Origin: Nitrosospira multiformis ATCC 25196
GTDB taxonomy: Bacteria > Pseudomonadota > Gammaproteobacteria > Burkholderiales > Nitrosomonadaceae
DNA: 32,000 nt
Reading direction: 5' to 3'
Assembly (NCBI RefSeq): GCF_000196355.1
Contig: NC_007614.1
Span: forward strand, 30,001-62,000
This document shows, piece after piece, positions 2,465 to 23,867 of the stretch (its first letter is position 1; every line of letters starts with the position of its first letter). The notes beneath the pieces were generated by a model. The model was not told the origin of the DNA and made no database searches. It was given only the letters and a program-made list of their open reading frames with translations. The position numbers and the translations under genes were made by a program.

Positions 2465-2492
2465 TTGAAAAAAAACAAAAATTATCTATAAA
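2465..2492 (+). promoter_or_regulatory. candidate sigma70 promoter for the 2528.. operon
   Basis: TTGAAA (2465..2470), 16-nt spacer, TATAAA (2487..2492) in an AT-rich tract about 35 nt upstream of ATG 2528. Consensus match only, no experimental support. Confidence 0.35.
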
Positions 2493-2527
2493 TTTATTTT
2501 GGCCTCCCGGAAGCAAGGTGAAAAATC

Positions 2528-3013
2528 ATGGCATCCGAAAACTTCAAGAGCAACCTGATCACGGGCTTGGCGGCAGGCGTAGGGGCGACACTGCTCGCGC
2601 CAGTGCTGCTTCCATTTCTTGCCCGCCTCGTCAGGCCCGCTACCAAGGCTGCTATCAAGGGTAGCGTCCTTCTGTATGAGAAAGGACGTGAATCATTTGC
2701 CGAATTGAGCGAAACGGTGGATGACCTCATGGCAGAGGTCAAGTCGGAGATGGAAGCGGGTGCGGTGGAAGATGTGGCGGCGGGTGCCTCGGCAGTTCAG
2801 GCCGGTAGTGCGCAAGGGAGGACTGCCTCACCACCCCCCCAGCCCAGACCGGACTCTGTCGCCGGCCAAAGTTCGGCCACCCCGGCCGCAAGTCCGCCAG
2901 GCGAAGCCGATAAGGCACCGGAAAGTCTCCTCACGCAACCCGCTATGCAGGCGAATCGGGGTAGTCAGCGCCATGAAGAAGCGCAGGATCGACCGCCAAC
3001 CAAGGGGGAATGA
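2528..3013 (+). CDS. small membrane protein: N-terminal TM/amphipathic region (possibly DUF5132-like) plus Pro/Ala/Ser-rich tail
   Basis: 161-aa ORF. SD AAGGTG 7 nt before the ATG. N-terminus NLITGLAAGVGATLLAPVLLPFLARLV is hydrophobic, followed by an acidic helix and a low-complexity tail (ASPPPQPRPDSVAGQSSATPAASPPGEADKAPE). The stop TGA overlaps the next gene's ATG (ATGA, 3010..3013). The DUF5132 assignment is from memory and unverified. Confidence 0.7.
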   Translation: MASENFKSNLITGLAAGVGATLLAPVLLPFLARLVRPATKAAIKGSVLLYEKGRESFAELSETVDDLMAEVKSEMEAGAVEDVAAGASAVQAGSAQGRTASPPPQPRPDSVAGQSSATPAASPPGEADKAPESLLTQPAMQANRGSQRHEEAQDRPPTKGE

Positions 3014-3522
3014 TGGCGCCACTTGCGCGGGTGGTCCACTCTCTGCCGGGCAGGAAGCGGATAAAGATCGACGAAAGGCGCGGCGATACTGCGTACTTTG
3101 AGACGCTGCAAAAAGAACTGGCGGAGTGCCCAGGGGTTGGAGCGGTAGTGACGAATTCGCGGACGGGCACAGCGCTCGTCATCCATAAGGTGGAGGATCC
3201 GGTTCTGTGGCGCTATATCGCGGAACATGGGTTACTTCAGCTCGGAAAGAATGAAACCTCAGCCCCTGCAGTTGGTCCTTCAATCGTCGATGACATCAGG
3301 AACGTCGAACGTAAACCATATCCAAAATCTGGAAAGAAACCAGATATCCGGCGATTGATATTCCTGGGAATGATGGGTATGGGCATCGTGCAGGTAATCA
3401 GGGGCAATATAGCGATCCCGGCGATAGCGGCATTCTGGTACGCGTACTTCATTCTTCCTGCGACGAACGACGATAACCAAGAACATTCCTTCCTTGAAAC
3501 CAAGTTGTCCGAAGAATCCTAG
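3010..3522 (+). CDS. HMA-like (HMA_2-type, CxxC-less) domain protein with C-terminal two-helix membrane anchor
   Basis: 170 aa. N-terminal RVVHSLPGRKRIKIDERRGDTAYFETLQKELAECPGVGAVVTNSRTGTALVIH aligns with 4825..5184 and with the N-terminus of the ATPase. The C-terminus is hydrophobic: RRLIFLGMMGMGIVQVIRGNIAIPAIAAFWYAYFILPA. ATGA overlap with the upstream gene. Confidence 0.75.
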   Translation: MMAPLARVVHSLPGRKRIKIDERRGDTAYFETLQKELAECPGVGAVVTNSRTGTALVIHKVEDPVLWRYIAEHGLLQLGKNETSAPAVGPSIVDDIRNVERKPYPKSGKKPDIRRLIFLGMMGMGIVQVIRGNIAIPAIAAFWYAYFILPATNDDNQEHSFLETKLSEES

Positions 3523-3714
3523 ATTTTGGAAATGATTGAATGATGATTTCCGAAAATCTCGCAAGACTAAAAATCTGTTGCAAAAATTCTGAGCGAGCCA
3601 AGGGGTTGCAAGAGTCCACCACGGGATTCTGTGTCGAAGCGGTAATAAACGGCAGAAGTGAAAGCATTTATATCGCATGGCAAGGAAATCGTAACTATAC
3701 GAGGAGGAATCGAA

Positions 3715-4551
3715 ATGAAGACCCCTAGATCAGGCAGGCACGGAGGGGGAAAGCCGCACCCCGAGGAAAAAAAGTGGACCGATAATAATATAGAGACTCC
3801 CGAGGAAGCAAGGTATGCCCGTGGTGAAACACCCCCGGGAGATGAGGGATATGTGGGAACGACACATCCCTATCGCTCGGATGCTGAGCGCGCGATGGGA
3901 GAGGCTGGCCGCACCGTAAAAACAGGCATTGCCAGCAGCTTGAGAGGCATCGATGAAATTGAATCTGATATCGTAAGCCTGGTGCGCAATACCGTATCCA
4001 ATACGTTGAGAGCAACAGGGGCAGTCGGTGCGGAAGCAGTCGATATAACAAGGGATGTCGTCAAGGGTGCTCTTGCCGCCACCGAAGACGTAGGGACCGG
4101 CCTGGCGCTTTCCACAAAAAGCGTTGCCAAGGGGGTGGTAATGGGCGTGTCCGATGTGGGGGGCGACGTTATCACGGCCGCAACAGAAACCGTAAAGGCC
4201 GCAGTCCGCGGTGCTGCTGACGCGGGGGGTGACACGTTGCTGGTTGCCAAGCGAACGGTGGACGGCGTGGCAGAGGGAACGAGGGAGACGGGAGGCAATG
4301 TCGTAGAGATGGTCAGGGCGACCGTAAACGCGGCAGCTGGAGGGATAGGCGATATTGGCACCACCGCTGTCGCGAGCGTGCGCGACATTCTCATGAGTGT
4401 TGTGGAGGGTGTAAAGGACGTGGCAGGCGCCGCAATGCTAAAGTCATATCACCCGGAGGACCGCGTTTCTCCTGGAGAATATACTGCTCCCACGGAGCGT
4501 ACCAATCCGCCAGAATATGTCTCTCCTCCGGAGAGCAAAAAGCCCACGTAA
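3715..4551 (+). CDS. tandem 22-residue-repeat protein (7 repeats), unknown function
   Basis: I chose the internal ATG 3715 of track ORF 3658..4551 because GAGGAGG (3701..3707) lies 7 nt upstream. 278 aa: a charged, probably disordered N-terminus, seven 22-aa repeats (nt 3973..4434), and a C-terminal tail with PGEYTAP/PPEYVSP. No signal peptide or TM seen. Confidence 0.75.
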   Translation: MKTPRSGRHGGGKPHPEEKKWTDNNIETPEEARYARGETPPGDEGYVGTTHPYRSDAERAMGEAGRTVKTGIASSLRGIDEIESDIVSLVRNTVSNTLRATGAVGAEAVDITRDVVKGALAATEDVGTGLALSTKSVAKGVVMGVSDVGGDVITAATETVKAAVRGAADAGGDTLLVAKRTVDGVAEGTRETGGNVVEMVRATVNAAAGGIGDIGTTAVASVRDILMSVVEGVKDVAGAAMLKSYHPEDRVSPGEYTAPTERTNPPEYVSPPESKKPT

Positions 4552-4787
4552 TCGTTATCAGGGCAATACCACTCGGGCGCCTCAGCCCTGTTCTATTCCA
4601 TCATCCTGCAGGCTCAACTCTTGCACAATCCTTCCGCTACATCCGACACCTCGACACCGCAACATTCCGTGTAAACAAGTGCACCGTGGCTTCGGCAACC
4701 AGTTCATTCAATCGGTGGTCGTGAATTTCCATTTCATGACTCAGTACTCGCTCCGTTTCATCACCTTGTAACAAAGTCCCGCTTAAA

Positions 4788-4820
4788 TACCTCCATGAGA
4801 AAGATACCTTAATGGAGGTA
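4788..4820 (+). promoter_or_regulatory. hairpin sequestering the Shine-Dalgarno of the 4825 gene
   Basis: Perfect 9-bp inverted repeat TACCTCCAT (4788..4796) / ATGGAGGTA (4812..4820) with a 15-nt loop. The 3' arm contains the GGAGG SD 4 nt before ATG 4825. Confidence 0.4.
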
Positions 4821-4824
4821 AATC

Positions 4825-5184
4825 ATGGCTCACTATATCCACCATGTCCCGGGCAGATTGCGTGTCAATACGCCGCTCCTCAAAAAAAACGAGCCCGGTG
4901 CCCGGCAGTTGAAATCGTACTTGGAAGGGGTAAATGGTATTCTTCAGATTGAAGCCAGCATTGTCACAGGCAGTGTCGTGATCAGGTATGACAAATGTCT
5001 CGTAAGCTCCACGTCGATTTTAAATTCCCTGCAGGACCTCGGATATATCCAGCATATCGGCACTCTATCCGAATCCGCGAACGGAACTCGGGGAACGCCG
5101 AAGGTCGTGGATATTTTCGTGCAGAAACTCGTGGAAACTGCATTGGAACGGTCGGCTGTGGCTCTGGTCGCAGCACTGATCTGA
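4825..5184 (+). CDS. small stand-alone HMA-like (HMA_2-type, CxxC-less) domain protein
   Basis: 119 aa. MAHYIHHVPGRLRVNTPLLKKNEPGARQLKSYLEGVNGILQIEASIVTGSVVIRYD... has the same HxxPGRxR ... TG..(V/L)I pattern as 3010..3522 and the ATPase N-terminus. GGAGG SD. No CxxC. Confidence 0.75.
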   Translation: MAHYIHHVPGRLRVNTPLLKKNEPGARQLKSYLEGVNGILQIEASIVTGSVVIRYDKCLVSSTSILNSLQDLGYIQHIGTLSESANGTRGTPKVVDIFVQKLVETALERSAVALVAALI

Positions 5185-5229
5185 GCTGGGCATATCGCTC
5201 GAGATGCGTTGACCCACCCAATATCCAGC

Positions 5230-6420
5230 CTAGCGCAGCAATGCAGCCTTGTCCGTGTTCTCCCACGGCAATCCGATATCCATCCGTCCCACCTGCCCGT
5301 AAACCGCAAGCTTGCGGTAAAACAAACCGCGAAATAGTTGAGGCTGATAGCGCAAATTAAAGGCGCGGATGATCCCGGCAGGGCGGAAATCAAACTGGTC
5401 GAGAATACGCGCCGTTATTTCGGTATCAGGAACGCTCCCTGTACCAAAAGTATCCGCCTGCACGCTTACCGGCCTCGATATTCCTATCGAATACGCCAGA
5501 TGTACCTCGCATGCCTGGGCGAGGCCGGCGGCGACTACATTCTTGGCCGCGTAGCGCGCTGCATACGCTCCCACGCGATCGATACGAGAAGGGTCCTTGC
5601 CGGAAAGCGCGGATTCCGAATGCCGGGAATATTCACCGTATGTATCCACTGCGTTCTTGCGGCCAGTCAAGCCGGAATGTAGCGACGGTCCTCCGTCGGC
5701 GACCAGCCCTTCCGGATTGATGAAAATATGGGTGCGGGAGTCGGGCCGCAGCGTCTCCGTTGCGAAAACCGGCTCAATCACATGCGCGTTGAGATCATCG
5801 CGCAGCGGTGCGAGGCCGCGCATGGCGGTCTTCTGCTGAGCGGCAATGATGGTGATGGAATGAATGCGATACGGTCTGCCTTCGCGATATTCCACCCCTA
5901 CCTGCGTTTTTCCATCGGGCGCAAGATAGGGGATCTGCTTCTGAAAACGTGCGGCCGTAAGCCGACGCGCCAGTTTATGCGAAAGCGAGATGGGCAGCGG
6001 CATAAAGGCCGAGCTCTGATTACAGGCAAAGCCGAATACATTGGCCTGGTTCTTGGCAGTAACGGATTCCAGCTCTTCCTCATTCATTTCCCTCTCATCT
6101 ATGAACGGATAAGACGGTGCCGGCAGTTCGCTCAGGCTCGTCATGATCGTGCAATCTCTTGCATTGAAATCCGCTTGCTCGTAGCCAAGCTGGTGTATAA
6201 CCCGGCGCGCAACCTCGGGGATGTCGACAGAAGCCGACGAAGCGAAGCGGGCTGCGATAAAAAGTATTCCCGTGGATACTGCGCACTCCGCTATCACCTT
6301 CGAAAAGGGGTCTTGCTGCAGAAAGCGGTCGACCAACGCATCGCTCACTTGATCGCAAAGCTTATCCGGATGCCCTTCGGTTACAGATTCGGAGGTGAAC
6401 ATGAAATTCTGTTTCATCAT
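5230..6420 (-). CDS. divergent S-adenosylmethionine synthetase (MAT/MetK)-fold protein, probably not the housekeeping enzyme
   Basis: 396 aa. MAT hallmarks are present: TSESVTEGHPDKLCDQVSDA, APDGKTQV, GLTGRKNAVDTYG, SGKDPSRIDRVGAYAARYAAKNVVAAGLA, PWENTDKAALL. Several catalytic motifs are substituted (see findings). Its ATG overlaps the ATPase stop (ATGA, 6417..6420), and an AGGAG SD lies inside the ATPase 3' end. Confidence 0.85.
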   Translation of the reverse strand: MMKQNFMFTSESVTEGHPDKLCDQVSDALVDRFLQQDPFSKVIAECAVSTGILFIAARFASSASVDIPEVARRVIHQLGYEQADFNARDCTIMTSLSELPAPSYPFIDEREMNEEELESVTAKNQANVFGFACNQSSAFMPLPISLSHKLARRLTAARFQKQIPYLAPDGKTQVGVEYREGRPYRIHSITIIAAQQKTAMRGLAPLRDDLNAHVIEPVFATETLRPDSRTHIFINPEGLVADGGPSLHSGLTGRKNAVDTYGEYSRHSESALSGKDPSRIDRVGAYAARYAAKNVVAAGLAQACEVHLAYSIGISRPVSVQADTFGTGSVPDTEITARILDQFDFRPAGIIRAFNLRYQPQLFRGLFYRKLAVYGQVGRMDIGLPWENTDKAALLR

Positions 6421-9400
6421 CCATACTCCTGCGGCGCTGGTGGTAGAGATAGCGGCTCTTTACGTCGCTTGCCTTTGAAGGCAGTCTCTTTGGTTGCTTC
6501 ATTCAGGAAAAAAGGCAGTACAGAACCTGCGCCTATCGCCGCCACATCGAGTGGGCCTATCGGGGTATTACCCAGCAGACTGCGGACGCCTGGCACCAGC
6601 ACCGTAGCCCATTGGAGCAAGGCCGTTCCACCGATCGCCAGATCGAGATAGCGATTGGAGCGGAGCGTCTCGTGGCTGAATATGCCGATATGATCCGAAC
6701 GGCAACTATATGCGTGAAGCAACTGCCCCATCGTCAGGGTCATGAAGGCAATCGTGCTGGCCTTCTGCCCTCCGCCATAACGTGTCATGGCATAGCCATA
6801 ACCGCCCATTGACCCCGCAGCCATTGCCAGCGACTCCAGCCCGTAGCGCTTGAAGTCGGCGGGACCTACAATGGGTTCCGCCGGGTCTCGCGGGGGCTGC
6901 CGCAGCACATCCGGCTCGGGCGGCTCCACAGCAAGCGCCAGCCCGGGGAAGACATCGGTTACCAGGTTGATCCACAGCAAGTGACTGGTGGTGAGCGGAG
7001 TACCCAGTCCTGTCCCTATAGAGCCGAGCATCAGCATGATCTCGGACAGATTGGTGGCGGTAAGGAAATGAATCGATTTGCGAATATTATTGTAAATCGT
7101 CCTGCCTTCCGAGACGGCCACAATCATGGTGCTGAGATTATCGTCTTCCAGTATAACGTCGGCCACGCTGCGCGCCACCTCCGTGCCGGTGCCGCCCATG
7201 GCGACGCCAATGTCCGCGGCCTTGAGGGCGGGCCCGTCATTGATGCCGTCGCCCGTCATCGCGGCGATTTTGCCCCCGCGCTGCAGTGCCTGCACGATTT
7301 GCAGCTTGTTGGCCGGGCTGACGCGGGAGAAGATATTGACCTTTTGGGCAAGCCCAGCCAGGACCTCTGCATCAAGTTGATCAAGCCGGGTGGAATCGAG
7401 AATGTCGAGTTCGCTGCCGCCGGATAACCCAAGTTCCTTCCCTATCGCATATGCAGTGCCGCTCTGATCACCGGTTATCATCACCGTGTCTATCCCGGCC
7501 TGATGAAACAAGGCGATGAGTTCCTTCATCCCCTGCCGCAGGGGATCTGCCATTCCCGTCATTCCCAGCCAGATGAGTTCATCCGCTGAAGATTGATCGG
7601 CTTGTCTCGGTTCGACGTAGGCAAATCCCAGCACACGCAGCGCTTCTGCCGCCATGCGGTCATTTTCCATGAGTATGACCGTTCGCTCCGCCTGCGTGAG
7701 GGGTAAACGCGCGCCGTCCTTCAACCACCACCGACACATTTCCAGCACCTCGACCGGATTACCCTTGACAGCCACGAGCTTTCCCTCCCCTTGCGCGCTA
7801 TGGGTCGTGCTCATGTAGTTCCGGGTTTCGGTACGGTATTCGACTTGCTCTCTGGGATAGCGCCGACGAAGCGCCTCAACTGAAACGCCTGCCGCCAGCG
7901 CAAGGTGCATCAATGCGCTTTCTGTTGGGGATCCCTTGAGCAGATAGTTGCCTTTCTCCCCGTTCAGTTCCACTTCGTTGCAAAGAACAGCCACATGGAG
8001 GAGCCGCAACAATTCATCGCTCTGATAGGGATTGATTCTTATACCCGCATCGTAAAACACATCACTATCCACTGTAATGCGGCGTCCTCCGCTGTACAGG
8101 GCCAGGACAGACATACGGTTGAGAGTGAGCGTTCCGGTTTTGTCCAGGCAGATTACCTGTACTGCGCCCAAGGTTTCCACTGCATCGAGGCGTCGCACCA
8201 GCACCTTGTGACGGTTCATTGTCCGGATACCCAAGGCGAGAGTGGTCGTTGCCACGGTGGGCAGGCCTTCCGGGACAGCGGCCACGGCAAGGGAAATGGA
8301 GGTTTTCAACATTTGCAGCCAAGCGTGACCACGGACCAGCCCGATCAGAAACATGGCTCCGCAAATGCCCAGGGACAGCAACACCATCTGATTCCCCAGG
8401 ATCGCAAGCTGGCGCTGCATAGGTGTTTCCGGAGGGCGCGTTTCACCTACAAGCGATTGAATCATGCCGATCTCGGTATACCGGCCGGTCGAAACCACTA
8501 CTGAGAGGCCGCTGCCCCCCGTTACCACCGTACCCATGTATACCATGTTAAGCCGGTCTGCGAGAGAGACCTCCGGCTTGTCCAACGGGCTCACTCTCTT
8601 CGCCACCGGAAGGCTTTCTCCGGTAAGCATGGATTCATCCATCATCAGATTGCGCGACTCGAGCACCCTGCCATCAGCAGCTACCCGAGCCCCGGGTGTC
8701 AGCACCAGGATGTCGCCCGGCACCAGGGACTTGGCCGGCACCTCCAGAAGCCGTGCATCGCGGATGACCATTGCGTTCTGCTCGGCCACATGTCCGAGCG
8801 CATTAATCGTTCGCTCCGATTGAGACTCGGCAACATAGCCCGTACCCGCGTTGATCAAAACGACTCCGAGGATCACGGCCGCATCGAGCAGTCCTCCAGT
8901 GGCTGCGGAAAGGACAGCGGATACACCGAGTAAAGCCACAGGCAGGCTTTTAAACTGCCCCAGAAAAATGCTCAGCCCGGAACGGGGCGGCGTCTCCGGT
9001 AGGCTATTGACCCCGAAATAGCCAAGCTTCCGCTCCACGGAAGCTTGGCTAAGACCGAATTCCATGGAAGTTTCAAGCGCAGCCACCACGGTATCGCCAG
9101 GCAAGGCATGCCAATTTTTACGATCCTGTAGAAGAACTGAATCGGGATCAGAAGAAATGACGGGAGAAGCAGGACGTCCGGAGGCACGCAAAAAACGGCC
9201 ATCGTCTACCGGGTTCCCGGGAATGATTTCATGCCCGGCCTCCAACAGCAGTTGCTCCAACCAGGTCTTGATTTCTTCAAGGTCGCGTGCCGGATCAAAA
9301 ACGATCAATACCCGGCCCGTGAGAATGTTCGCGGAAGCATGTCTGATCGCATCATGCCTCGGCAGGGCAGACTCGAGCTTACGCCTGACGGACTCCGATC

Positions 9401-9539
9401 GATACAAACCCCGTACCTTAAGCCTTGCGCGGCCCCCCACAGCTGCATGAACGATGCGCACCGGTTCGGGAGGCTCGGCTTCAGTCGCACCTGTCCCGAA
9501 GAAAGAAGGGCGTTGCATCTGGTCGAAAAGTAGAGACAT
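6417..9539 (-). CDS. P2-type (SERCA/PMCA-like) cation-translocating P-type ATPase with N-terminal CxxC-less HMA-like domain
   Basis: 1040 aa with the motifs TGESLPV, ICLDKTGTLT, MITGDQ and TGDGINDGPALKAADIGVAMG. TM4 is AVPEGLP (not the CPx of heavy-metal pumps). TM6 is LLWINLVTDVFPGLALAVEPPEPDVLRQPPRDP. A Cation_ATPase_N-like segment WHALPGDTVVAALETSMEFGLSQASVERKLGYFGVNSL is present. N-terminal residues ~27-98 (nt 9246..9461), RIVHAAVGGRARLKVRG...NILTGRVLIVF, form the HMA-like domain. The start codon is uncertain (alternative Met8). Confidence 0.9.
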   Translation of the reverse strand: MSLLFDQMQRPSFFGTGATEAEPPEPVRIVHAAVGGRARLKVRGLYRSESVRRKLESALPRHDAIRHASANILTGRVLIVFDPARDLEEIKTWLEQLLLEAGHEIIPGNPVDDGRFLRASGRPASPVISSDPDSVLLQDRKNWHALPGDTVVAALETSMEFGLSQASVERKLGYFGVNSLPETPPRSGLSIFLGQFKSLPVALLGVSAVLSAATGGLLDAAVILGVVLINAGTGYVAESQSERTINALGHVAEQNAMVIRDARLLEVPAKSLVPGDILVLTPGARVAADGRVLESRNLMMDESMLTGESLPVAKRVSPLDKPEVSLADRLNMVYMGTVVTGGSGLSVVVSTGRYTEIGMIQSLVGETRPPETPMQRQLAILGNQMVLLSLGICGAMFLIGLVRGHAWLQMLKTSISLAVAAVPEGLPTVATTTLALGIRTMNRHKVLVRRLDAVETLGAVQVICLDKTGTLTLNRMSVLALYSGGRRITVDSDVFYDAGIRINPYQSDELLRLLHVAVLCNEVELNGEKGNYLLKGSPTESALMHLALAAGVSVEALRRRYPREQVEYRTETRNYMSTTHSAQGEGKLVAVKGNPVEVLEMCRWWLKDGARLPLTQAERTVILMENDRMAAEALRVLGFAYVEPRQADQSSADELIWLGMTGMADPLRQGMKELIALFHQAGIDTVMITGDQSGTAYAIGKELGLSGGSELDILDSTRLDQLDAEVLAGLAQKVNIFSRVSPANKLQIVQALQRGGKIAAMTGDGINDGPALKAADIGVAMGGTGTEVARSVADVILEDDNLSTMIVAVSEGRTIYNNIRKSIHFLTATNLSEIMLMLGSIGTGLGTPLTTSHLLWINLVTDVFPGLALAVEPPEPDVLRQPPRDPAEPIVGPADFKRYGLESLAMAAGSMGGYGYAMTRYGGGQKASTIAFMTLTMGQLLHAYSCRSDHIGIFSHETLRSNRYLDLAIGGTALLQWATVLVPGVRSLLGNTPIGPLDVAAIGAGSVLPFFLNEATKETAFKGKRRKEPLSLPPAPQEYG

Positions 9540-9838: not shown

Positions 9839-9883
9839 TATAATTCAAGCTCAGGCACTGTGCCTGATGCCTCAAGGCATCAG
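9839..9883 (+). promoter_or_regulatory. perfect -10 box followed by two overlapping palindromes (candidate operator or 5'-leader structure) upstream of the flavoprotein gene
   Basis: TATAAT at 9839..9844. TCAGGCA (9851..9857) ctg TGCCTGA (9861..9867), and CTGATGCCT (9864..9872) ca AGGCATCAG (9875..9883). The two palindromes share CTGA. They lie 67-99 nt upstream of ATG 9950. Confidence 0.35.
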
Positions 9884-9949
9884 ATTCGGGTTCCACCAGG
9901 TTTCGCAAGCTCCTTGAAGCACGAGGTCACCGGGGTAACGGGAGAAAAA

Positions 9950-11914
9950 ATGCCGGGCAATACATCCCATACACAGAAATCGGAAATAAATGATCTGGTA
10001 ATTGTCGGCGGCGGTATTGCCGGACTCTATTGCTGCCACGAGCTTATCAAGAAAGTCCGGAGCGGCTCGCTCGATATCAGGAGCATTCTCCTTCTGGAAG
10101 CTTCCGACCGGTTTGGCGGGCGCATCGAAACGTGGTCCCTGCTGAGAAGCAGTGAGGAAAATGGAAAGAAGATCGGTTTTGAAGATACATGGGACCCGTG
10201 TAACTGGAACATCGATAACGGTTGCCTTGCTCCCCCTGACCCGCAAACGGGTAAACAGTCTCCATTCAAAGGTCCGACAGAAAAATCATTCAGGAATGTG
10301 GATGGCAAGGATGTCGAAAAGCTGACCGATATCGAATACTTCCGCGCGGAATTCGGGCCCATGAGAATCGAACCGCGGGACCAGATTTTATTGCAGGGAT
10401 TGCTCGACGATCTTGGAATCAGGGAGCCTGACCCGGGGGAGGAAGAAAGCCTGGATGACCTCGTGCCGTTCTCTTCGTACACCTCCGAAGATCCGATGGC
10501 GCCTCGCTTCACCCTTCAGGAGGAGGAAGCACAGCAGAAAACTCCTTTTGACCTGATGATACTCGCTCTCAGGCGCATCTTCGAGCTCGTCCAAGGTCCG
10601 AAATTCGACGGCCCGGCTTCGAATCCCTGGTGTACGGAAGCCGCCAATGAACAATGGAGAAAATTGCACAGCGCGCAGTTCTTTTATCGCCATTACTGGA
10701 AGGGAGAGCTGCTCGAATGGATACAGTACCTTACCGATCCTGACTTCGTAACGATTCGGGAGCATGCGCGGTTCAGGGACCAGCCGTTATGGGACCTGGG
10801 ATTCTGGAACGTCCTCAGCGACGTCTTGAGCCATTATGCGGTGGTCAAGATCAGGGATTGGGGAAGTTACTATCACTTTGTCCACGAAAATCTGAATGCC
10901 GCCGAGTGGATCATCTTCTGGCTCAGGGCAATTCGAAGCACAGGTTCGCTTCGAGGCATACGCGGAGGGATGAGCAGGATAATCTGGAACCTGCTGGAAG
11001 TCTTGCGGAAGCACCAGAACAGTCACCAATCTCCTCGTCTGAAAATCGCGAAAGGCTCGAGGGTGGTGAGCGTAGAAAGACGGGATGATGCGCTGGTTGC
11101 CCTTACCGTGCAGAATGAGGATGAGGTCGAGCTTGTGTGCGCACGAAGAGTCATTTTTGCCCTGCCGAAGCGTCCGCTCGAGGAAATGTCATGGAATGGG
11201 GAACATCCAAAAGGCAAGCTTCACGAAGCATTCAATGCGGTCGTTTGCCTTCCGCTACTGAAATGTTTTTTCGTCATCGAGAAACCCTGGTGGGAAGACA
11301 ACCGGTCTCTCAACCGCCATGCGTCCGACATACCAACCCGCGAGTTGCTGTATGTGAAAAGCAGGGACCGGACAAAAGGGTTGATCATGATTTATACCGA
11401 TCGCCCGGCAATCACATTCTGGTCCGATTATCTCAGAAGCGAATCCGGCAATAATTCCAAAGGTCCCGAGCAACCGGAGGGGCCGCAGGTCGACTATCAG
11501 GATGCCGCCAGGATCTGGTTCCTGGAGAAAAAACCTTCCCCGACGTGCGGTTCGATCATCGAAATCAAGCCCGGATCGGCTCGCCTATGGCAGCGTTTCG
11601 TGCAGTTTGCCAGGGATTATGAGCACCATGACTTTACCACGGGCCGCCTTCTCGCCTGCGGGATGCGCGACTGGGGAAAGGAGCCTTTCGGCGCCGCAGC
11701 GCACGGGTGGCGTCCGGGTGTAAAGTCCCGGGAGCATATCGAGTTTCTCGAGGCATTTTCTCTCGAACAAGAGGAGCAGGAAACCGGGCAAAACAACCTG
11801 CATGTTTGCGGAGAAGCATTTTCTGACTACCAGGGATTTATTGAAGGCGCGCTGCGATCAGCGCAGCGCGTGCTGGTTGTGATAGAGGAACAGCAGGAGC
11901 CGGGAAAAAGCTGA
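9950..11914 (+). CDS. FAD-dependent amine / L-amino-acid oxidase (monooxygenase) family flavoprotein
   Basis: I chose ATG 9950 (GGAG at 9941..9944) rather than GTG 9860. Dinucleotide fold DLVIVGGGIAGLYCCHEL ... LLLEASDRFGGRIETW. AEFGPMRIEP and IRGGMSRI resemble LAAO/tryptophan-2-monooxygenase motifs. C-terminal LHVCGEAFSDYQGFIEGALRSAQRVL is the typical flavin amine oxidase tail. Confidence 0.8.
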   Translation: MPGNTSHTQKSEINDLVIVGGGIAGLYCCHELIKKVRSGSLDIRSILLLEASDRFGGRIETWSLLRSSEENGKKIGFEDTWDPCNWNIDNGCLAPPDPQTGKQSPFKGPTEKSFRNVDGKDVEKLTDIEYFRAEFGPMRIEPRDQILLQGLLDDLGIREPDPGEEESLDDLVPFSSYTSEDPMAPRFTLQEEEAQQKTPFDLMILALRRIFELVQGPKFDGPASNPWCTEAANEQWRKLHSAQFFYRHYWKGELLEWIQYLTDPDFVTIREHARFRDQPLWDLGFWNVLSDVLSHYAVVKIRDWGSYYHFVHENLNAAEWIIFWLRAIRSTGSLRGIRGGMSRIIWNLLEVLRKHQNSHQSPRLKIAKGSRVVSVERRDDALVALTVQNEDEVELVCARRVIFALPKRPLEEMSWNGEHPKGKLHEAFNAVVCLPLLKCFFVIEKPWWEDNRSLNRHASDIPTRELLYVKSRDRTKGLIMIYTDRPAITFWSDYLRSESGNNSKGPEQPEGPQVDYQDAARIWFLEKKPSPTCGSIIEIKPGSARLWQRFVQFARDYEHHDFTTGRLLACGMRDWGKEPFGAAAHGWRPGVKSREHIEFLEAFSLEQEEQETGQNNLHVCGEAFSDYQGFIEGALRSAQRVLVVIEEQQEPGKS

Positions 11915-11918
11915 GTTT

Positions 11919-13004
11919 TTATCCAGTCTTTTGTTTCCGCAGAAAAGACAGCACGGCAGACTCGAGCGGGTCATGGGCGGCATGCGCCGCTTCTTCCATT
12001 TCCTGCACGCAGCGATGAAGATCGCCTTTCTGCCAGGCAGAAAACACCGCCGGATTGATGTAGGATTTCCGGCAGACGGCAGGGGTATTGCGCAGATCTT
12101 CCGCGACTTGCCGTATCGCCGCAACGATGCCGGCCTTGAGAGCGCGCTTGGTCGGGAATTCAGGCAACGGCGTATTGAGCATGATTTCGAACGCCCGCAA
12201 GGTTCCGCTCCATGTTCGGAAATCCTTCGCGGTAAATTCGGCTTCCATGACTTCGTGGAGGTAGGCGTTTACCTGCTCCGCTCCGACCGGCCGTCGCTTG
12301 CCGCTCTCATCCAGGTACTGGAAAAGATGCTGGCCCCTCAGCTCTTGGCAAGCCCGGATAATGGTGATGATGCGCCTGTCACCGATCGTGACTTCGTGCT
12401 CGACCCGGCTCTTGCCCCGGAATTTCAATAATGCGCGCCTGGGGTTGATGAAGGCAAGATGCCGCTTGCGCAGGGTTGTAAGTCCGAAACTGTGGTTATC
12501 GCGGGCGTAAGACAGGTTACCGATGCGCACTTGCGTCGTATCAAGCAGTCTCACTATTGCAGCAACAACCTTTTTTTGCGGCAAACCTCGTTTTTTCAGA
12601 TCAAGGTGTACACGCTCACGCAGTTGAGGTAAAGCTTCGCCGAATTCCACCATGCGGTCAAATTTGATGCTGTCCCGCACCGCGCGCCAATCGGAATGGT
12701 AGCGGTACTGCTTGCGGCTGCGCGCATCCAGTCCGGTGGCCTGCAAGTGGCCCAGAGGATGAGGGCAAATCCAGACGTCGGTATAAGCGGGAGGAATGGC
12801 GAGCCGGGCAATGCGCTCAAGCTCGCCCTTATCACTCAAGGGCTTTTCATCCGGACCGACATAACGAAATCCCTCGCCGGAGGCCAACCTTCTGATCCCA
12901 GGCTCATCGCCGGAGACATAGATCAACCCCGCGGCCGCCGCTTGCGCCGCCAGAATTTCCACCGCCTGGGGCCGCAACTCCTCCTTATTCGGAGAGAATG
13001 ACAT
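11919..13004 (-). CDS. DNA topoisomerase IB (bacterial, poxvirus-like)
   Basis: I chose start ATG 13004 (MSFSPNKEE) with an AGGAG SD 7 nt upstream. GFRYVGPDEKPLSD..ERIARLAIPPAYTDVWICPHPLGHLQATGLDARSRKQYRYH is typical of bacterial TopIB. The C-terminal CRKSYINPAVF carries the SYIxP catalytic-Tyr motif. Confidence 0.85.
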   Translation of the reverse strand: MSFSPNKEELRPQAVEILAAQAAAAGLIYVSGDEPGIRRLASGEGFRYVGPDEKPLSDKGELERIARLAIPPAYTDVWICPHPLGHLQATGLDARSRKQYRYHSDWRAVRDSIKFDRMVEFGEALPQLRERVHLDLKKRGLPQKKVVAAIVRLLDTTQVRIGNLSYARDNHSFGLTTLRKRHLAFINPRRALLKFRGKSRVEHEVTIGDRRIITIIRACQELRGQHLFQYLDESGKRRPVGAEQVNAYLHEVMEAEFTAKDFRTWSGTLRAFEIMLNTPLPEFPTKRALKAGIVAAIRQVAEDLRNTPAVCRKSYINPAVFSAWQKGDLHRCVQEMEEAAHAAHDPLESAVLSFLRKQKTG

Positions 13005-13319
13005 ATGGTTACTCCTGTCGCAGGCTGGTTGTAACAAAGTCAGTATGTCAAGCAGTTTGGAAAACGAAAAACAGGGGATTCGAAGGTCAGGCGCCAGGGT
13101 ACTGCCAAGCAGCAGACTGGATACGCTTCTATCGACAGCAATGATAGCCTTCCGGTTCCATCCTTTTGGAAGGGTAAAAACCAGGAAGAAAACTTTATCT
13201 GTCCTGACTGGTTTTCTTCATTTATGGAGATATTTAAGCGAGGCATCACCTCGGTGATTGCTCAAAGCGTTCGCATATTCCTTATCTGGTAGGTTGGAAT
13301 TTCCAAGGGGGCGATGGGG

Positions 13320-19829: not shown

Positions 19830-20135
19830 CTTACCCCCATGGATAGTGAAAAAATAGAACCTGGTGCCATCTTATCTACATCACATCGGATTCCTATTGG
19901 ACTTAAGTACACCCTGTACTTTGGTACAAGGCGATGGGAGCGGGGAGACAGCCTTGCTCTAATACTCGTCTAATGACGTTCCGCTCCCATCGAATTCCCG
20001 CCTTATCCGGACAGAAGTCGTCATTGCCGCTATCAAGATACTCATCTCAGCCGGTTGGTTGTCATGAGCCTGCCGGAGGGAATGGTGGAGAAGGGCATGA
20101 TAGAATCCAGGCTCCACCCGAATTTTGGTATTGCC

Positions 20136-23100
20136 ATGAACGAACACCCTCGCATCAAATTACTGGAAGATCTGCTGGCTCGCCGCATCCTGCTGCTCGA
20201 TGGTGCCATGGGCACCATGATTCAGAGCCATAAGCTTGGCGAAAAGGACTATCGCGGGGAGCGCTTTGCCGATTTTCCGCATGACCTCCGGGGCAACAAC
20301 GATCTCCTGACGCTCACCCAGCCGCAGGTGATCCGTTCCATTCATGAAGCCTATCTGGAGGCAGGCGCAGACATTGTCGAAACCAACACTTTCAATTCCA
20401 CCGCGGCCTCGATGGGCGACTACCACATGCAGGACCTGGTGTATGAGCTGAACTTTGCCGGGGCCCGGCTGGCAAAGGAAGCAGCCCAAGCGATGGAAGC
20501 AAAGACGCCAGAGAAGCCGCGCTTTGTCGCGGGCGTGCTGGGACCGACCACCAAAACCGCTTCGATTTCTCCCGACGTGAACGACCCCGGCTTCCGCGGC
20601 ATCACATTCGACCAGCTGGTGGAGGATTATTCCGAATCCATTCGCGGCCTGCTGGACGGCGGAGCTGATATTCTGCTGGTGGAAACCATATTCGATACCC
20701 TCAATGCGAAAGCGGCACTGTTTGCCATAGACCGGTATTTCGAAACCCATCAGGTACGTGTTCCCATCATGATTTCGGCCACGATAACGGATGCTTCGGG
20801 ACGCACGCTTTCCGGCCAGACGCCGGAAGCATTCTGGAACTCCGTATCTCATGCCCGTCCGTTGTCCGTAGGCCTCAACTGCGCCTTGGGGGCGGAGCTG
20901 ATGCGCCCCTACGTCGAGGAGCTTTCCAGGGTTGCAGGCGTGTATGTGAGTGCTCACCCCAACGCGGGCTTGCCCAATCCGCTGGCGGAGACGGGCTATG
21001 ACGAATCCCCGGAATATACTGCCGGATTGATCAAAGGGTATGCGCAAGCCGGTTTTGTGAATATCGTCGGCGGTTGCTGCGGCACCACGCCTGCGCATAT
21101 CAAAGCCATTGCAGACGCCGTAGGGAGTATCCCACCTCGGGTCGTGCCGGATGTTCCAAAGAAGCTTCGTCTTTCCGGTCTTGAACCGCTCAACATCGGT
21201 GATGACTCCCTGTTTGTAAACGTCGGGGAGCGGACCAACGTCACCGGTTCGAAAGCCTTTGCCCGCCTGATACTCGGCAACAACTATGCGGAAGCACTGA
21301 GCGTCGGACGCAGCCAGGTCGAGAATGGGGCGCAGATCATCGACATCAACATGGACGAGGCGATGCTCGATTCGCAGAAGGCGATGGTTACTTTCCTGAA
21401 CCTCGTCGCTGCGGAGCCGGATATCAGCCGTGTGCCGATCATGATCGACTCCAGCAAGTGGTCGGTCATTGAAGCCGGGCTGAAGTGCGTGCAGGGCAAG
21501 CCTATCATCAACTCCATCAGCCTCAAGGAAGGTGAAGCCGAATTCATCGAACATGCGAAACTCGCCCGGCGTTATGGCGCTGCGGTCATCGTGATGGCGT
21601 TCGACGAGACCGGGCAGGCGGACACCTTGGCGCGCAAGGTGGAGATTTGCGCGCGCTGCTACCGTATTCTTGTTGATCAGGTTGGTTTCCCCCCTGAGGA
21701 CATCATCTTTGATCCGAATATCTTTGCAATCGCTACCGGGATAGAAGAACACAATAATTACGGCGTGGATTTCATCGAAGCGACCCGCGCCATCAAGGAA
21801 AAGCTGCCGTATGCGAAGGTGAGCGGCGGCGTTTCAAATGTTTCCTTCTCCTTCCGCGGCAATGAGCCCGTGCGGGAAGCGATCCATACTGCCTTTCTCT
21901 ACCATGCCGTTCGCGCCGGGATGACGATGGGCATCGTGAACGCTGGTCAGCTCGGCGTTTATTCCGATATCCCCAAGGACCTGCTGGAGCGAGTCGAGGA
22001 TGTATTGCTCAACCGCCCCGTTCCGGGAGACGGAGAGACTACCGCCACCGAGCGCCTCGTGGAGTTTGCCGAGAGCTTCAAGGGACAAAGCAAGGAAAGC
22101 ACCGAAGACCTTGCGTGGCGAAACGGTTCGCTGCAGGAGCGGCTGACGCATGCCCTGGTCAAGGGAATTACCACCTATATCGTGGAAGATACCGAGGCAG
22201 CCCGGCAGGAAATAGCCGCACAGGGTGGACGGCCGATTCAGGTGATCGAAGGCCCGCTGATGAACGGGATGAATGTCGTCGGCGATCTGTTCGGCTCGGG
22301 CAAGATGTTCCTGCCCCAGGTGGTGAAATCGGCGCGCGTGATGAAACAGGCGGTGGCGCACCTCCTGCCCTTCATCGAGGCGGAAAAGAAGTTGTCGGGG
22401 GATTCCAAACCCAAGGGCAAGATCGTCATTGCCACCGTCAAGGGCGATGTGCATGACATAGGCAAAAATATCGTCACCGTGGTGCTTCAGTGCAACAATT
22501 ATGAAGTAGTGAACATGGGGGTGATGGTCCCCAGTGCCCAAATTCTGGAGACTGCCAGACGCGAAAATGCCGACATGATCGGCTTGTCCGGCTTGATTAC
22601 GCCCTCCCTGGAAGAAATGGCGCATGTGGCAAAGGAGATGGAGCGCGAAGGTTTTACCATTCCGCTATTGATTGGCGGAGCCACCACCTCGCGCGTGCAC
22701 ACGGCGGTGAAGGTGGCGCCCAAATACAGTGGTGTTACCGTATGGGTGCCGGATGCCAGCCGCGCGGTCGGCGTATGCAGCAATCTGCTGTCGGAGGATT
22801 TACGGGCGGACTATATTCAGCAAATCCAGACCGAGTATGAGAGGGTACGGGCGCAGCATAAAAACAAGAAAGGGCCGGCGCCGATGCTATCCATTGCAGA
22901 CGCCCGCAAGAACGCATTCAAAACGGATTGGGAGACCTACTCCCCTCCTTCCCCCGGCTTTACCGGTTTGAGGTCCTTGCGAAACTATCCGCTGGAAAAA
23001 CTGGTGCCCTTCATAGACTGGACGCCGTTCTTTCAGGCATGGGAGCTGTCGGGACGTTTCCCAGCCATTCTGGAGGATGAGGTGGTCGGCGAGGCCGCCA

Positions 23101-23867
23101 GCAATCTCTACCGCGATGCGCAAGTGATGCTGAAAAAGATCGTGGAGCAGAAATGGCTTACAGCAAATGCCGTATTCGGCCTGTTTCCAGCCAATACAGT
23201 CAACAGTGACGATATCGAAATCTATACGGACAAAGCCCGCGAGCGGGTAGCGATGACCTTTCATAACCTGCGCCAGCAGACCATGAAACCGGACGGCAAG
23301 CCCAATCTGTGCCTGGCGGATTTCATTGCCCCCAGGGAAAGCGGCATTACCGATACCATCGGCGCGTTCGCGGTGACTGCGGGAATGGGCATCGAGGCAA
23401 AGTTAAAGGTGTTCGAGGAGGCGCATGATGATTACAGCGCAATTATCCTGAAAGCGCTGGCGGATCGTCTGGCAGAAGCCTTTGCGGAACACATGCACTG
23501 GCGGATACGGCGTGAATTCTGGGGCTTTGTCAAAGATGAAAACCTGAGCAACGAGCAGCTGGTTGCGGAAGAATATCAGGGCATTCGCCCGGCGCCCGGC
23601 TACCCGGCCTGCCCGGATCACACCGAGAAGGGCCCTTTGTTTGAAATGCTGAAAGCGCCTGAAAATGCTGGCATCATCGTGACTGAATCCTTTGCCATGG
23701 TACCCACAGCCGCGGTATCAGGCTTTTACTTTTCCCACCCGGAAGCCAGATATTTCGCAGTTGGCAAGATCGGCAAGGATCAGGTGGAGGATTACGCAAG
23801 GCGCAAGGGCTGGACGATGGAAGAAACGGAGACGTGGCTGGCACCTGTTCTGGCGTATGAAAGATAG
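20136..23867 (+). CDS. metH: cobalamin-dependent methionine synthase
   Basis: I chose ATG 20136 ([30 protein letters not shown]) by N-terminal alignment to E. coli MetH from memory; the alternative ATG 20097 has a better SD. All modules are present: Hcy-binding, pterin-binding, B12 cap plus the [11 protein letters not shown] (DxHxxG) motif, and the AdoMet activation domain. Confidence 0.95.

Follow-up and report, generated by a model that had tools for sequence, protein, structure and literature searches.

Nitrosospira multiformis is a soil ammonia oxidiser. We studied here six adjacent genes in a 32,000-nucleotide stretch of the genome of strain ATCC 25196 (contig NC_007614.1, positions 30,001 to 62,000; hereafter the window), which encode a P2A-type cation pump, a paralog of the methionine adenosyltransferase (MAT) MetK and four small proteins. 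An earlier note, made from the sequence alone, had described them as two converging operons whose products would act together as a membrane-associated module for cation handling, storage or pump regulation. Our analysis shows that this gene set is conserved and co-inherited well beyond Nitrosospira. The window sequence also has an exact match in N. multiformis GCA_900108135.1, contig FNVK01000034.1. Coordinates are given as window positions and residue numbers are those of each protein (Table 1).

Gene content of the locus

Four genes on the + strand, encoding a DUF5132 protein, a protein that joins a CoBaHMA domain to a transmembrane (TM) hairpin (CoBaHMA-TM), a repeat protein (REP) and a small stand-alone CoBaHMA protein, face the genes of the pump and of the MetK-like protein on the - strand. 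The coordinates given in the earlier note for all six open reading frames (ORFs) proved exact in an ORF check, and the sequence bears out both ATGA overlaps, ggggaATGAtgg at 3010-3013 (+ strand) between the DUF5132 and CoBaHMA-TM genes and tatggATGAtga at 6420-6417 (- strand) between the pump and MetK-like genes, as well as the 45-bp convergent gap. The Shine-Dalgarno sequences had been described as strong throughout; those before 3715 (GAGGAGG) and 4825 (GGAGG) are, while the one before 2528 (AAGGTGA) is moderate only. No further gene was found between the six components; of the remaining large ORFs in the window, most belong to ordinary Pfam families and three have none. GenBank lists a 62-aa gene at 3540-3728 (+) in the 192-bp spacer between the CoBaHMA-TM and repeat-protein genes. 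This ORF overlaps both the Shine-Dalgarno sequence and the start of the repeat gene, has no counterpart among the genes called in the Logan assembly of the same sequence (L002), and is probably not a real gene.

Table 1. Features of the six-gene locus (window positions) and of related loci (numbered L; positions within each locus).
Feature	Position	Strand	Basis or remark
DUF5132 protein, 161 aa	2528..3013	+	Pfam PF17195, hydropathy
CoBaHMA-TM protein, 170 aa	3010..3522	+	Pfam HMA_2; ATGA overlap with DUF5132 gene
Repeat protein REP, 278 aa	3715..4551	+	Lag-22 autocorrelation; without Pfam family
Small stand-alone CoBaHMA protein, 119 aa	4825..5184	+	Pfam HMA_2
Convergent gap, 45 bp, between small CoBaHMA and MetK-like genes	5185..5229	.	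Sequence
MetK-like MAT-fold paralog, 396 aa	5230..6420	-	Three MAT Pfam domains; ATGA-coupled to pump
P2A-type (SPCA/SERCA/LMCA1-like) cation pump, 1040 aa	6417..9539	-	Pfam and PDB matches
Pump CoBaHMA domain, aa 30-83	9291..9452	-	Pfam HMA_2 and family HMM
Weak promoter-like site 5' of DUF5132 gene	2465..2494	+	TTGAAA-18-TAAATT, 9/12 matches
Zinc-ribbon and CoBaHMA genes, examples	L005 16613-17283; L008 15047-15747; L089 13173-13843; L090 10350-11037		
DUF3562, examples	L010 8629-8877; L006 12694-13008; L012 14309-14524; L089 10224-10445		
Na_Ca_ex	L024 7143-8087 and 13076-14152; L032 1689-2759; L051 16964-17965; L053 5063-5560; L064 8407-9477		
Short P-type ATPases	L020 6397-8589; L052 6059-8437		N-terminal HMA_2 above Pfam cutoff
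Short P-type ATPases	L065 6097-8187; L067 2606-5131		HMA_2 below cutoff
Short P-type ATPase	L066 7594-9714		CoBaHMA by own HMM only
Cyanobacterial DUF5132-hairpin fusions	L011 9264-9836; L016 9434-10018; L039 9447-9971		Pfam for L011 only
Cyanobacterial DUF5132-hairpin fusions	L043 7249-7884; L047 9340-9963		Own HMM matches

Conservation of the gene set

That these families lie together in other genomes was a prediction of the earlier note, set beforehand as a refuting test, and it held in a gene-neighbourhood census. Eighty loci were fetched from species-representative genomes, 23 diverse pump homologs were aligned, and six-frame ORFs were searched with iterated hidden Markov models (HMMs) seeded from the six window proteins. 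The MetK-like gene was counted in the 54 CoBaHMA-pump loci whose downstream sequence extends for 1.3 kb or more, and the partners in the 38 loci with wide flanks on both sides. A MetK-like gene lies directly downstream of the pump in 50 of the 54 loci, and within ±150 nt of the pump stop in 46; its estimated start offset is -3 in 14 loci, as an ATGA overlap gives. Among the wide-flank loci, DUF5132 was found in 37/38, the small CoBaHMA protein in 36/38, the MetK-like protein in 34/38 and the repeat protein in 18/38. The hosts, spread over 10 or more phyla or classes, belong to Nitrospirota, Desulfobacterota, Cyanobacteria, Alpha-, Beta- and Gammaproteobacteria, Binatia, Myxococcota, Acidobacteriota, Rokubacteria and Methylomirabilota. 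Look-ups anchored on the MetK-like protein (Ca. Manganitrophus, a Limnocylindrales-labelled metagenome-assembled genome (MAG) and a Thiobacillaceae MAG) found the pump immediately upstream in 3/3 cases, with the full small-gene set also present in the first two. Moreover, pump and MetK-like distances are strongly correlated (Mantel r=0.89, with 0/999 permutations as high), the MetK-like protein being the more conserved of the two. We conclude that these genes are conserved and inherited as a set, with a CoBaHMA-bearing P2A pump and a MAT-fold paralog at its core.

The common layout, seen in most phyla, is a single co-directional operon, in the order DUF5132, CoBaHMA-TM, repeat protein, pump and MetK-like, with a gene for a CoBaHMA protein of ~123 aa convergent on MetK-like. 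The small stand-alone CoBaHMA gene is always convergent on the MetK-like gene, and loci of other phyla, such as L013, L038 and L090, have this junction as well. The two-operon convergent layout of the window was also seen in a few proteobacterial loci (L003, L012, L051) and is a proteobacterial rearrangement. In a first neighbour clustering, no other family occurred in more than 5 loci; since no other family is broadly conserved, the genes that flank the six in the window are not part of the module.

The CoBaHMA domain and the pump

The earlier note had claimed that one domain of ~70 aa occurs three times at the locus, at the pump N-terminus and in two of the small proteins, and this too had been set beforehand as a refuting test. 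Pfam, BLASTP and family HMMs agree on it. HMA_2 (PF19991) matches the product of 3010-3522 (E=9e-11, 42.4 bits, profile positions 9-152 of 154) and that of 4825-5184 (E=1.8e-12, 47.9 bits). The match on the pump domain (E=5e-6, 26.9 bits) lies under the Pfam gathering score of 30 bits, our own family HMM matches it at E=3e-18, and PF19991 is precomputed on most pump homologs. Pairwise BLASTP among the three window domains gave 5e-7 to 1e-3, and HMMs built from related loci match all three at E ~1e-18 to 1e-43. Aligned with one another, the three domains all have H6, G10, R11, R13, T48 and G49; among the pump homologs R39 is invariant and H31, G36 and R37 are nearly so, and the family consensus reads 'Y.H.vPGRlR.k.p.lK'. 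As had been noted, no CxxC is present, each stand-alone protein having one Cys in total and the aligned pump domain none.

Thus the shared domain is real, but it was not in need of a name: it matches Pfam HMA_2, already published under the name CoBaHMA ('Conserved Basic residues HMA'; Benzerara et al. 2022, PMC8890360; Gaschignard et al. 2024, Proteins 92:776). CoBaHMA was defined in the N-terminus of calcyanin, as a CxxC-less fold of the HMA superfamily with an extra strand b0 that carries a strictly conserved His, plus conserved basic residues, and the most widespread type of calcyanin has it at its N-terminus (PMC8890360). Gaschignard 2024 is reported to put forward, as a hypothesis, that the basic patch holds an anionic partner (lipid). 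The window domains likewise have the CxxC-less HMA ferredoxin fold, the b0 His and the Arg/Lys residues, and, as at the locus, stand-alone and membrane-protein-fused architectures are both known from the family. An AlphaFold2 (AF2) model of the 119-aa protein, built on a shallow alignment (3 sequences), has b0 (E4-8, which holds H6), E11-15, H23-34, E39-45, E50-55 and H62-71 at pLDDT 85-90, in the order b0-b1-a1-b2-b3-a2. In Foldseek, the top PDB matches of this model consist entirely of HMA domains (RAN1 MBD3, the CzcP N-terminal extension, ATP7B, MerP and CopZ). Profile matches to classical HMA and CopZ are weak, with E ~0.002-0.02, far under the cutoffs.

The pump itself has the Pfam domains Cation_ATPase_N, E1-E2_ATPase, Hydrolase, Cation_ATPase and Cation_ATPase_C, and its best PDB match is SPCA1 (1.5e-142), followed by LMCA1 and SERCA. 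Its TGES (306-309), DKTGT (466-470) and TGDGIND (762-768) motifs are invariant among the 23 diverse homologs, as are E424, N830, E833, N858 and D862, with T/S861 conserved. By motif comparison the five invariant residues are the equivalents of SERCA E309, N768, E771, N796 and D800, which belong, with T799 and E908, to the Ca2+-coordinating residues of TM4/5/6/8; at the E908 position the pump has Q939. The pump has the P2A architecture and catalytic motifs of SERCA, SPCA1 and LMCA1 and, by this comparison, putative Ca-site residues apart from E908. Genes for Na_Ca_ex, a CaCA-family Ca2+/cation exchanger, adjoin the module in 5 loci, and the cation (Ca-type) theme of the earlier note agrees with both observations. 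In L051 the Na_Ca_ex gene is on the same strand as the small-gene block and directly upstream of it.

One CoBaHMA-type pump lies on a Microvirga megaplasmid. Some neighbourhoods hold a second, shorter class of P-type ATPase (~700-840 aa, E1-E2_ATPase and Hydrolase only), possibly P1B-like. L065-L067 are without a MetK-like gene, and some distant loci have such short CoBaHMA P-type ATPases in its place.

The MetK-like protein

PF00438, PF02772 and PF02773 are all present in the MetK-like protein, which passes the cutoff of the metK equivalog TIGR01034 (358 bits vs 309.4), and every source name in the homolog search is methionine adenosyltransferase. The earlier note had pointed to altered catalytic motifs. 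These are present, and a comparison of 58 cluster-linked copies with 75 canonical MATs allowed us to refine them. The roles of the residues, given in E. coli numbering, are known from the E. coli and human MAT structures. The triphosphate, Mg and K ligands D16, K17, E42, R244, K245, K265 and D271 are kept in 58/58 copies; H14 is kept in 54/58 and K165 in 42/58, the window protein having both. The methionine pocket is replaced, with D238H and K269R in 58/58 copies, E55 changed to R in 49/58 and to H in 7/58, and Q98 changed to L, M or another hydrophobic residue; two acid-to-base swaps sit where the amino group of methionine would be held. In the adenosine pocket, D118 is N, D, H or Q across the clade and F230, which stacks on adenine, is variable (F22, L15 and V9 of 58 copies). 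The window protein itself has R55, L98, H238 and R269, together with V230, N118 and the motif TAKNQA for GAGDQG, in which G115, D118 and G120 are all replaced. Listed against MetK, the changes of the clade also include D118N/H/E, G258S, G260S/A and F262L (entered as F261 in the comparison of the 58 copies). The canonical MATs retain E55, D238 and K269 by selection, with Q98 conserved at 0.97 and D118 at 1.0.

The positions that discriminate the two groups (54/55, 98/99/102, 115/118/120, 230, 238, 260 and 269) line the methionine and adenosine pocket, and those conserved in both form the triphosphate and metal framework. Since this framework is kept and the pocket replaced, the MetK-like protein appears to be a MAT-fold paralog that has been neofunctionalised while its triphosphate site stayed intact; the idea of a triphosphate-processing MAT fold, raised in the earlier note, fits this residue pattern. 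The methionine-binding residues are not kept, so the protein should not be filed as MetK or as an S-adenosylmethionine (SAM) synthetase. It is ~45% identical to solved MATs and 66-69% identical to cluster-linked copies in other phyla; plasmid-borne canonical MetKs are <60% identical to it (42-48% among the matches listed). Judged by identity, the clade is thus sharply bounded, with at least 66% within it and <60% to canonical MATs. In a search of 1.8 billion cluster representatives, the top-scoring matches, ~17 clusters at 50% identity, have H238 and R269, and the clade is absent from PLSDB plasmids. With MetK (1RG9/1P7L; TIGR01034) the protein shares the three-domain fold, H14 and the seven ligand residues; it differs in the methionine and adenosine pocket, in identity and in its fixed synteny with the pump.

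Several long ORFs seemed to join pump and MetK-like. Those of L046, L075 and L076 were rejected as alternate-frame artefacts in GC-rich DNA. An 884-aa ORF in L077 (9974-12628, Richelia sp. SL_2_1) joins a truncated pump (PEGL, DKTGT, TGDGIND) to the C-terminal two-thirds of a MetK-like protein. It is probably a pseudogene or the outcome of a deletion, in the reduced genome of a symbiont, and not a functional fusion.

Small partner proteins

The TM segment and low-complexity region claimed for the first small protein were recovered by Pfam, hydropathy and the family consensus. The DUF5132 match (PF17195; E=1.7e-8, 34.9 bits vs a cutoff of 25) covers aa 35-77, a conserved K/E-rich helix (nt 2630-2758; family consensus from 57 sequences). 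It follows an N-terminal TM segment at ~aa 9-30 (hydropathy peak aa 9-18) and precedes a low-complexity A/P/S/Q tail that is specific to the Nitrosospira lineage. The CoBaHMA-TM protein has its domain at ~aa 4-75 and a C-terminal hydrophobic hairpin at ~aa 113-150 (nt 3346-3459; hydropathy peaks aa 116-134), with the family consensus '...tgg..d...l.fl.l.g.g..Q..rG....p.wytafwyA'. In the 119-aa protein, the domain (aa 1-75) is followed by a conserved hydrophobic C-terminal helix at aa 95-118 (nt 5107-5178), for which the consensus ends in '...l..l.ali'.

REP comprises a disordered N-terminus, seven 22-aa helical repeats at aa 78-231 (nt 3946-4407) and an acidic P/E/Y-rich tail. The sevenfold repeat, already described in the earlier note, is evident from the BLOSUM autocorrelation, which reaches 1.21 at lag 22 whereas none of 500 shuffles exceeded 0.36; at the DNA level, no tandem repeat was found in 3715-4551. 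The ~190-aa core is ~60% identical across Nitrosospira, Nitrospirota and Desulfobacterota. It is modelled by AF2 as a stack of 17-21-residue helices (core pLDDT 87-94), and the sole structural neighbours of the model in Foldseek are designed helical repeat proteins. On these models, REP is predicted to represent a conserved alpha-solenoid family. Its homologs in L005, L007, L008, L010 and L014 have basic GRGRRGE, GRGKK or KRTRKR C-termini, which are AT-hook-like. In Syntrophobacteraceae-like (Desulfobacterota-like) contigs (L085 7079-11746; proteins P0247-P0251, P0254, P0257, P0273 and P0281), the REP core is fused to a C-terminal MucR/Ros zinc-finger DNA-binding domain (PF05443; P0248 aa 230-316, E=4e-26), and this fusion adjoins DUF5132 and further unannotated proteins of 183-242 aa.

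Some of the small genes are linked to one another in other ways. A natural fusion in L013 joins DUF5132 to a full HMA_2 protein. In cyanobacteria, a gene 5' of the pump apparently fuses DUF5132 to the TM hairpin of HMA_2 but lacks the actual CoBaHMA domain; Pfam confirmed the arrangement in L011 only, the cases of L016, L039, L043 and L047 coming from our own HMM. Our own HMMs did not detect the repeat protein in the cyanobacterial loci. DUF5132 and REP-like genes also pair away from any pump, and seem to constitute a pair independent of it. The MucR-fused REP core beside DUF5132 in the Desulfobacterota-like contig is one example. Another such pair is found in another strain of N. multiformis (GCA_900111585.1; L083 7505-8993), where a pump-less DUF5132 gene (101 aa) is followed by a 217-aa REP paralog, with a DUF3562 gene convergent on the pair.

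A Cys-rich zinc-ribbon protein of ~100 aa, with weak matches to InsA, IS1595 and Top1 ribbons, occurs in 14 loci. In the loci with coordinates compared, its gene lies directly upstream of that of the 123-aa CoBaHMA protein, co-oriented and often overlapping.

Relation to the ccyA neighbourhood

Parts of this gene set have been reported around ccyA, the marker gene of intracellular amorphous calcium carbonate (iACC). In Microcystis aeruginosa PCC 7806, DUF5132 genes, a CoBaHMA-TM-hairpin gene, a stand-alone CoBaHMA gene and cax surround ccyA and are co-expressed with it (bioRxiv 10.1101/2024.07.07.602159). The protein with CoBaHMA and a hairpin like the DUF454 C-terminus is encoded three genes upstream of ccyA (Bruley et al., same preprint), and the DUF5132 proteins of Microcystis resemble the window protein in having a long helix after an N-terminal TM segment (same preprint). 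The two neighbourhoods share DUF5132, the CoBaHMA-TM hairpin and a stand-alone CoBaHMA protein beside a Ca2+ transporter, a putative one at the locus; they differ in that the transporter is a CAX exchanger accompanied by calcyanin in Microcystis, and here a P2A ATPase with its own CoBaHMA domain, accompanied by a MAT paralog and a solenoid, without calcyanin. The Na_Ca_ex genes next to some copies of the module echo the position of cax beside ccyA.

Chlorogloeopsis fritschii PCC 6912 (L011) carries the module, and so do a Methylococcus MAG (L042) and a Magnetospirillum MAG (L082). As background, C. fritschii PCC 6912 is an iACC former. For most of the host taxa (Nitrosospira, Syntrophobacteraceae, Binatia, Manganitrophus), no such inclusions are known. 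C. fritschii PCC 6912 is named only for its Ca2+/H+ antiporter by Benzerara 2022 (PMC8890360), and groups related to Methylococcus and Magnetospirillum are reported to form iACC. No ccyA or cax was found within ±10 kb of the C. fritschii locus. The window holds no cax/Na_Ca_ex, and calcyanin did not turn up there in a Pfam scan made without a calcyanin profile. The overlap with the genes around ccyA may nevertheless keep a role in a Ca deposit or compartment alive.

Interpretation

We give about even chances to the reading that the locus is the N. multiformis copy of a widely conserved operon built around a P2A pump for Ca-type transport, with the following roles for the partners and the MAT paralog. 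The pump would move Ca2+ (possibly Mn2+) across a membrane, which the small CoBaHMA and DUF5132 proteins would share and where they might regulate, localise or assemble the pump. This might occur via CoBaHMA-CoBaHMA contacts, like those of CopZ-type chaperones on P1B HMA domains, or, alternatively or additionally, via an anionic ligand bound on the basic patch of CoBaHMA. A scaffold role would fall to the solenoid protein, recruited by DUF5132. SAM would not be the product of the MAT-fold protein, which would instead use the conserved triphosphate site to bind or cleave ATP or (tri)phosphate; its remodelled pocket would hold a non-methionine, probably anionic, partner, and it would associate stoichiometrically with the pump. 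The DUF5132 fusions to HMA_2 or to the hairpin, and the DUF5132 and REP-like pairs without pump, hint at physical interactions. The logic of a stand-alone copy of the fold found at the pump N-terminus is that of CopZ/CopA and Atox1/ATP7, to whose domains the fold also matches, whereas the locus has no CxxC, a P2A and not a P1B pump, membrane-tethered copies and a proposed anionic ligand. SERCA with phospholamban or sarcolipin offers another parallel, the locus likewise encoding small membrane proteins as candidate regulators, but these are unrelated to phospholamban or sarcolipin. Of the module proposed in the earlier note, the conserved functional unit, the cation theme and the triphosphate fold are supported; the shared domain, however, had already been named and the two-operon layout is lineage-specific. 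Its docking or competition of the stand-alone domains with that of the pump, and its Ca/polyphosphate storage bodies, are conjectural.

Several observations weigh against this reading. The pump differs from SERCA, SPCA1 and LMCA1 in its N-terminal CoBaHMA domain and in having Q939 at the position of SERCA E908, and it scores below both NCBIfam cutoffs (606.5 vs 798.3 for the PMR1-type TIGR01522, 531.6 vs 703.4 for the SERCA-type TIGR01116), so it is a distinct subfamily and not an equivalog; its substrate, likely Ca2+ or possibly Mn2+, is assigned from residues alone. Four distant pump loci have no MetK-like gene, the repeat protein is missing from about half of the loci, and no genuine pump-MetK fusion was found among the fetched loci. 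The MetK-like protein may have residual or altered adenosyl-transfer chemistry, given that it passes the metK cutoff and keeps H14, and the variability of F230 makes even its binding of ATP uncertain. Finally, the zinc-ribbon and MucR links suggest a gene-regulatory side that the proposed roles do not explain.

A bolder version, possible but on the doubtful side, would make the MAT paralog a new enzyme or ligand subunit and the obligate partner of the pump. Its conserved triphosphate site and remodelled basic pocket (R55, H238, R269) would make, cleave or present a phosphate-rich anion that the CoBaHMA patch reads, coupling ATP or (poly)phosphate chemistry to Ca2+ transport, and possibly to a Ca-rich deposit with the solenoid as scaffold. 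Such a pump-enzyme-scaffold type would be without characterised precedent, and would offer a mechanism for the CoBaHMA and DUF5132 proteins of carbonate-forming bacteria. The module might also build or service an intracellular Ca-rich deposit or compartment, of amorphous Ca-carbonate-like or Ca-(poly)phosphate material, an explanation that we regard as unlikely. The pump would then load Ca2+, the MAT-fold protein would supply pyrophosphate or phosphate or handle triphosphate, CoBaHMA and DUF5132 would mark the membrane and the solenoid would serve as coat or scaffold. The co-expressed DUF5132, CoBaHMA(-TM) and Ca2+/H+ exchanger genes that flank ccyA in Microcystis argue for a deposit, as do the place of CoBaHMA at the N-terminus of the commonest calcyanin type, the presence of the module in C. 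fritschii and in the Methylococcus and Magnetospirillum MAGs, the intact triphosphate site and the conserved scaffold-like solenoid. Against it stand the C. fritschii locus, without calcyanin or cax nearby, the window, where neither turned up, and the many hosts with no known inclusions; the compartment itself is hypothetical. We think it quite unlikely that the small proteins form a membrane-tethered sensing and gene-regulatory device, in which CoBaHMA, DUF5132 and the solenoid would hold back or release zinc-finger DNA-binding proteins on a signal from Ca2+ or an anionic ligand, with the pump and MAT-like enzyme as regulated outputs. The MucR fusion of REP homologs (such as P0248), the zinc-ribbon genes upstream of CoBaHMA genes, the basic GRGRR/GRGKK tails of many REP homologs and the DUF5132/REP-like pairs away from pumps would suit such a device. 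The window, however, has neither a zinc-ribbon gene nor a MucR fusion, the tail of its REP is acidic and proline-rich, and what the zinc-ribbon proteins match are generic ribbons of transposase or topoisomerase type, with scores close to or under the Pfam cutoffs.

Two more conventional explanations fare worse. An ordinary Ca2+ efflux pump beside a true SAM synthetase, with unrelated hypothetical small genes, would account for the metK equivalog score, the uniform annotation and the three intact MAT domains; we hold it very improbable, as the adjacency recurs in 50/54 loci across phyla, the small genes occur in at least 95% of wide-flank loci, and the paralog has lost E55, Q98, D238 and K269 and is only 42-48% identical to canonical MATs. 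Heavy-metal (Cu/Zn/Cd/Hg) resistance of the CopZ/CopA type, in which HMA chaperones would feed the HMA domain of the pump, is hardly credible. The HMA fold matches, the weak classical HMA and CopZ hits and the short CoBaHMA P-type ATPases of some loci are in its favour, but the three domains contain no CxxC or other Cys pair, the pump is of the P2A class with Ca-type residues, and the classical profiles score far under their cutoffs.

The preferred reading, a Ca-type pump with dedicated partners, is of a pump system that appears to be undescribed and that has parts in common with the candidate genes for calcium-carbonate formation in bacteria. Some parts are known: CoBaHMA/HMA_2 and DUF5132 are, and DUF5132 and CoBaHMA-TM have already been reported beside ccyA/cax. 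We found no publication that describes the operon, the MetK-like clade or the repeat family, in a search that did not cover Gaschignard 2024, which may mention the pump architecture. The CoBaHMA literature, in its accessible part, covers calcyanins and ccyA neighbours; the six-gene operon, the MetK-like partner and the repeat protein lie beyond it. The MetK-like clade is systematically misannotated as methionine adenosyltransferase, its MAT fold probably carries a new activity, and the repeat protein is a conserved family without Pfam entry. CoBaHMA and DUF5132 proteins are current candidates in bacterial intracellular CaCO3 formation. The operon sets them beside a Ca-type pump in many cultivable bacteria (among them N. 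multiformis, C. fritschii PCC 6912 and a Methylocystis strain), so that their role can be tested outside iACC formers that are hard to manipulate. If the proposed roles hold true, the known forms of bacterial Ca2+-pump regulation would have to be widened to take in a P2A pump served by an enzyme of its own and by a solenoid scaffold.

Other features of the window and related loci

The 45-bp gap contains no significant hairpin (z=-0.44) and no terminator-like site. A promoter scan of the region gave a site count no higher than in shuffles, and the site listed at 2465-2494 rests on its position only. A search of the whole window for Rfam families, including SAM riboswitches, gave none, and zinc-ribbon, DUF3562 and Na_Ca_ex genes were searched for in the window and not found. 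The genes that flank the six in the window (DUF445, an amine-oxidase-like flavoprotein, TopIB, TetR/RND, MetH and SpoT) are not conserved with the module. The flavoprotein (684 aa, weak VioA/PigB-type matches) is divergent from the pump and lies beside the bacterial type IB topoisomerase, at 9860-13037; neither is conserved with the module. The B12-dependent methionine synthase MetH (1270 aa, 20055-23867, +) lies ~10 kb from the MetK-like gene, and its proximity is probably coincidental, because MetH is not conserved with the module elsewhere.

Among the less constant neighbours in other genomes, DUF3562 (PF12085, ~75 aa) occurs in 10 loci, often after the MetK-like gene. In a Thiobacillaceae MAG (L091 2558-12474), pump and MetK-like genes occur without the small genes, and are flanked by genes for nucleotide and pyrophosphate enzymes, namely a NUDIX hydrolase, an enzyme like pyruvate phosphate dikinase or phosphoenolpyruvate synthase, and a 5'-nucleotidase; this is a single case and may be coincidence. 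In Ca. Manganitrophus (L089 11006-13544), an ArsA/Get3-like ATPase with an HSP20-like domain is encoded between the MetK-like gene and two tandem 123-aa CoBaHMA genes. The products of these tandem genes end in a hydrophobic helix, and the arrangement hints at a tail-anchor-type membrane targeting.

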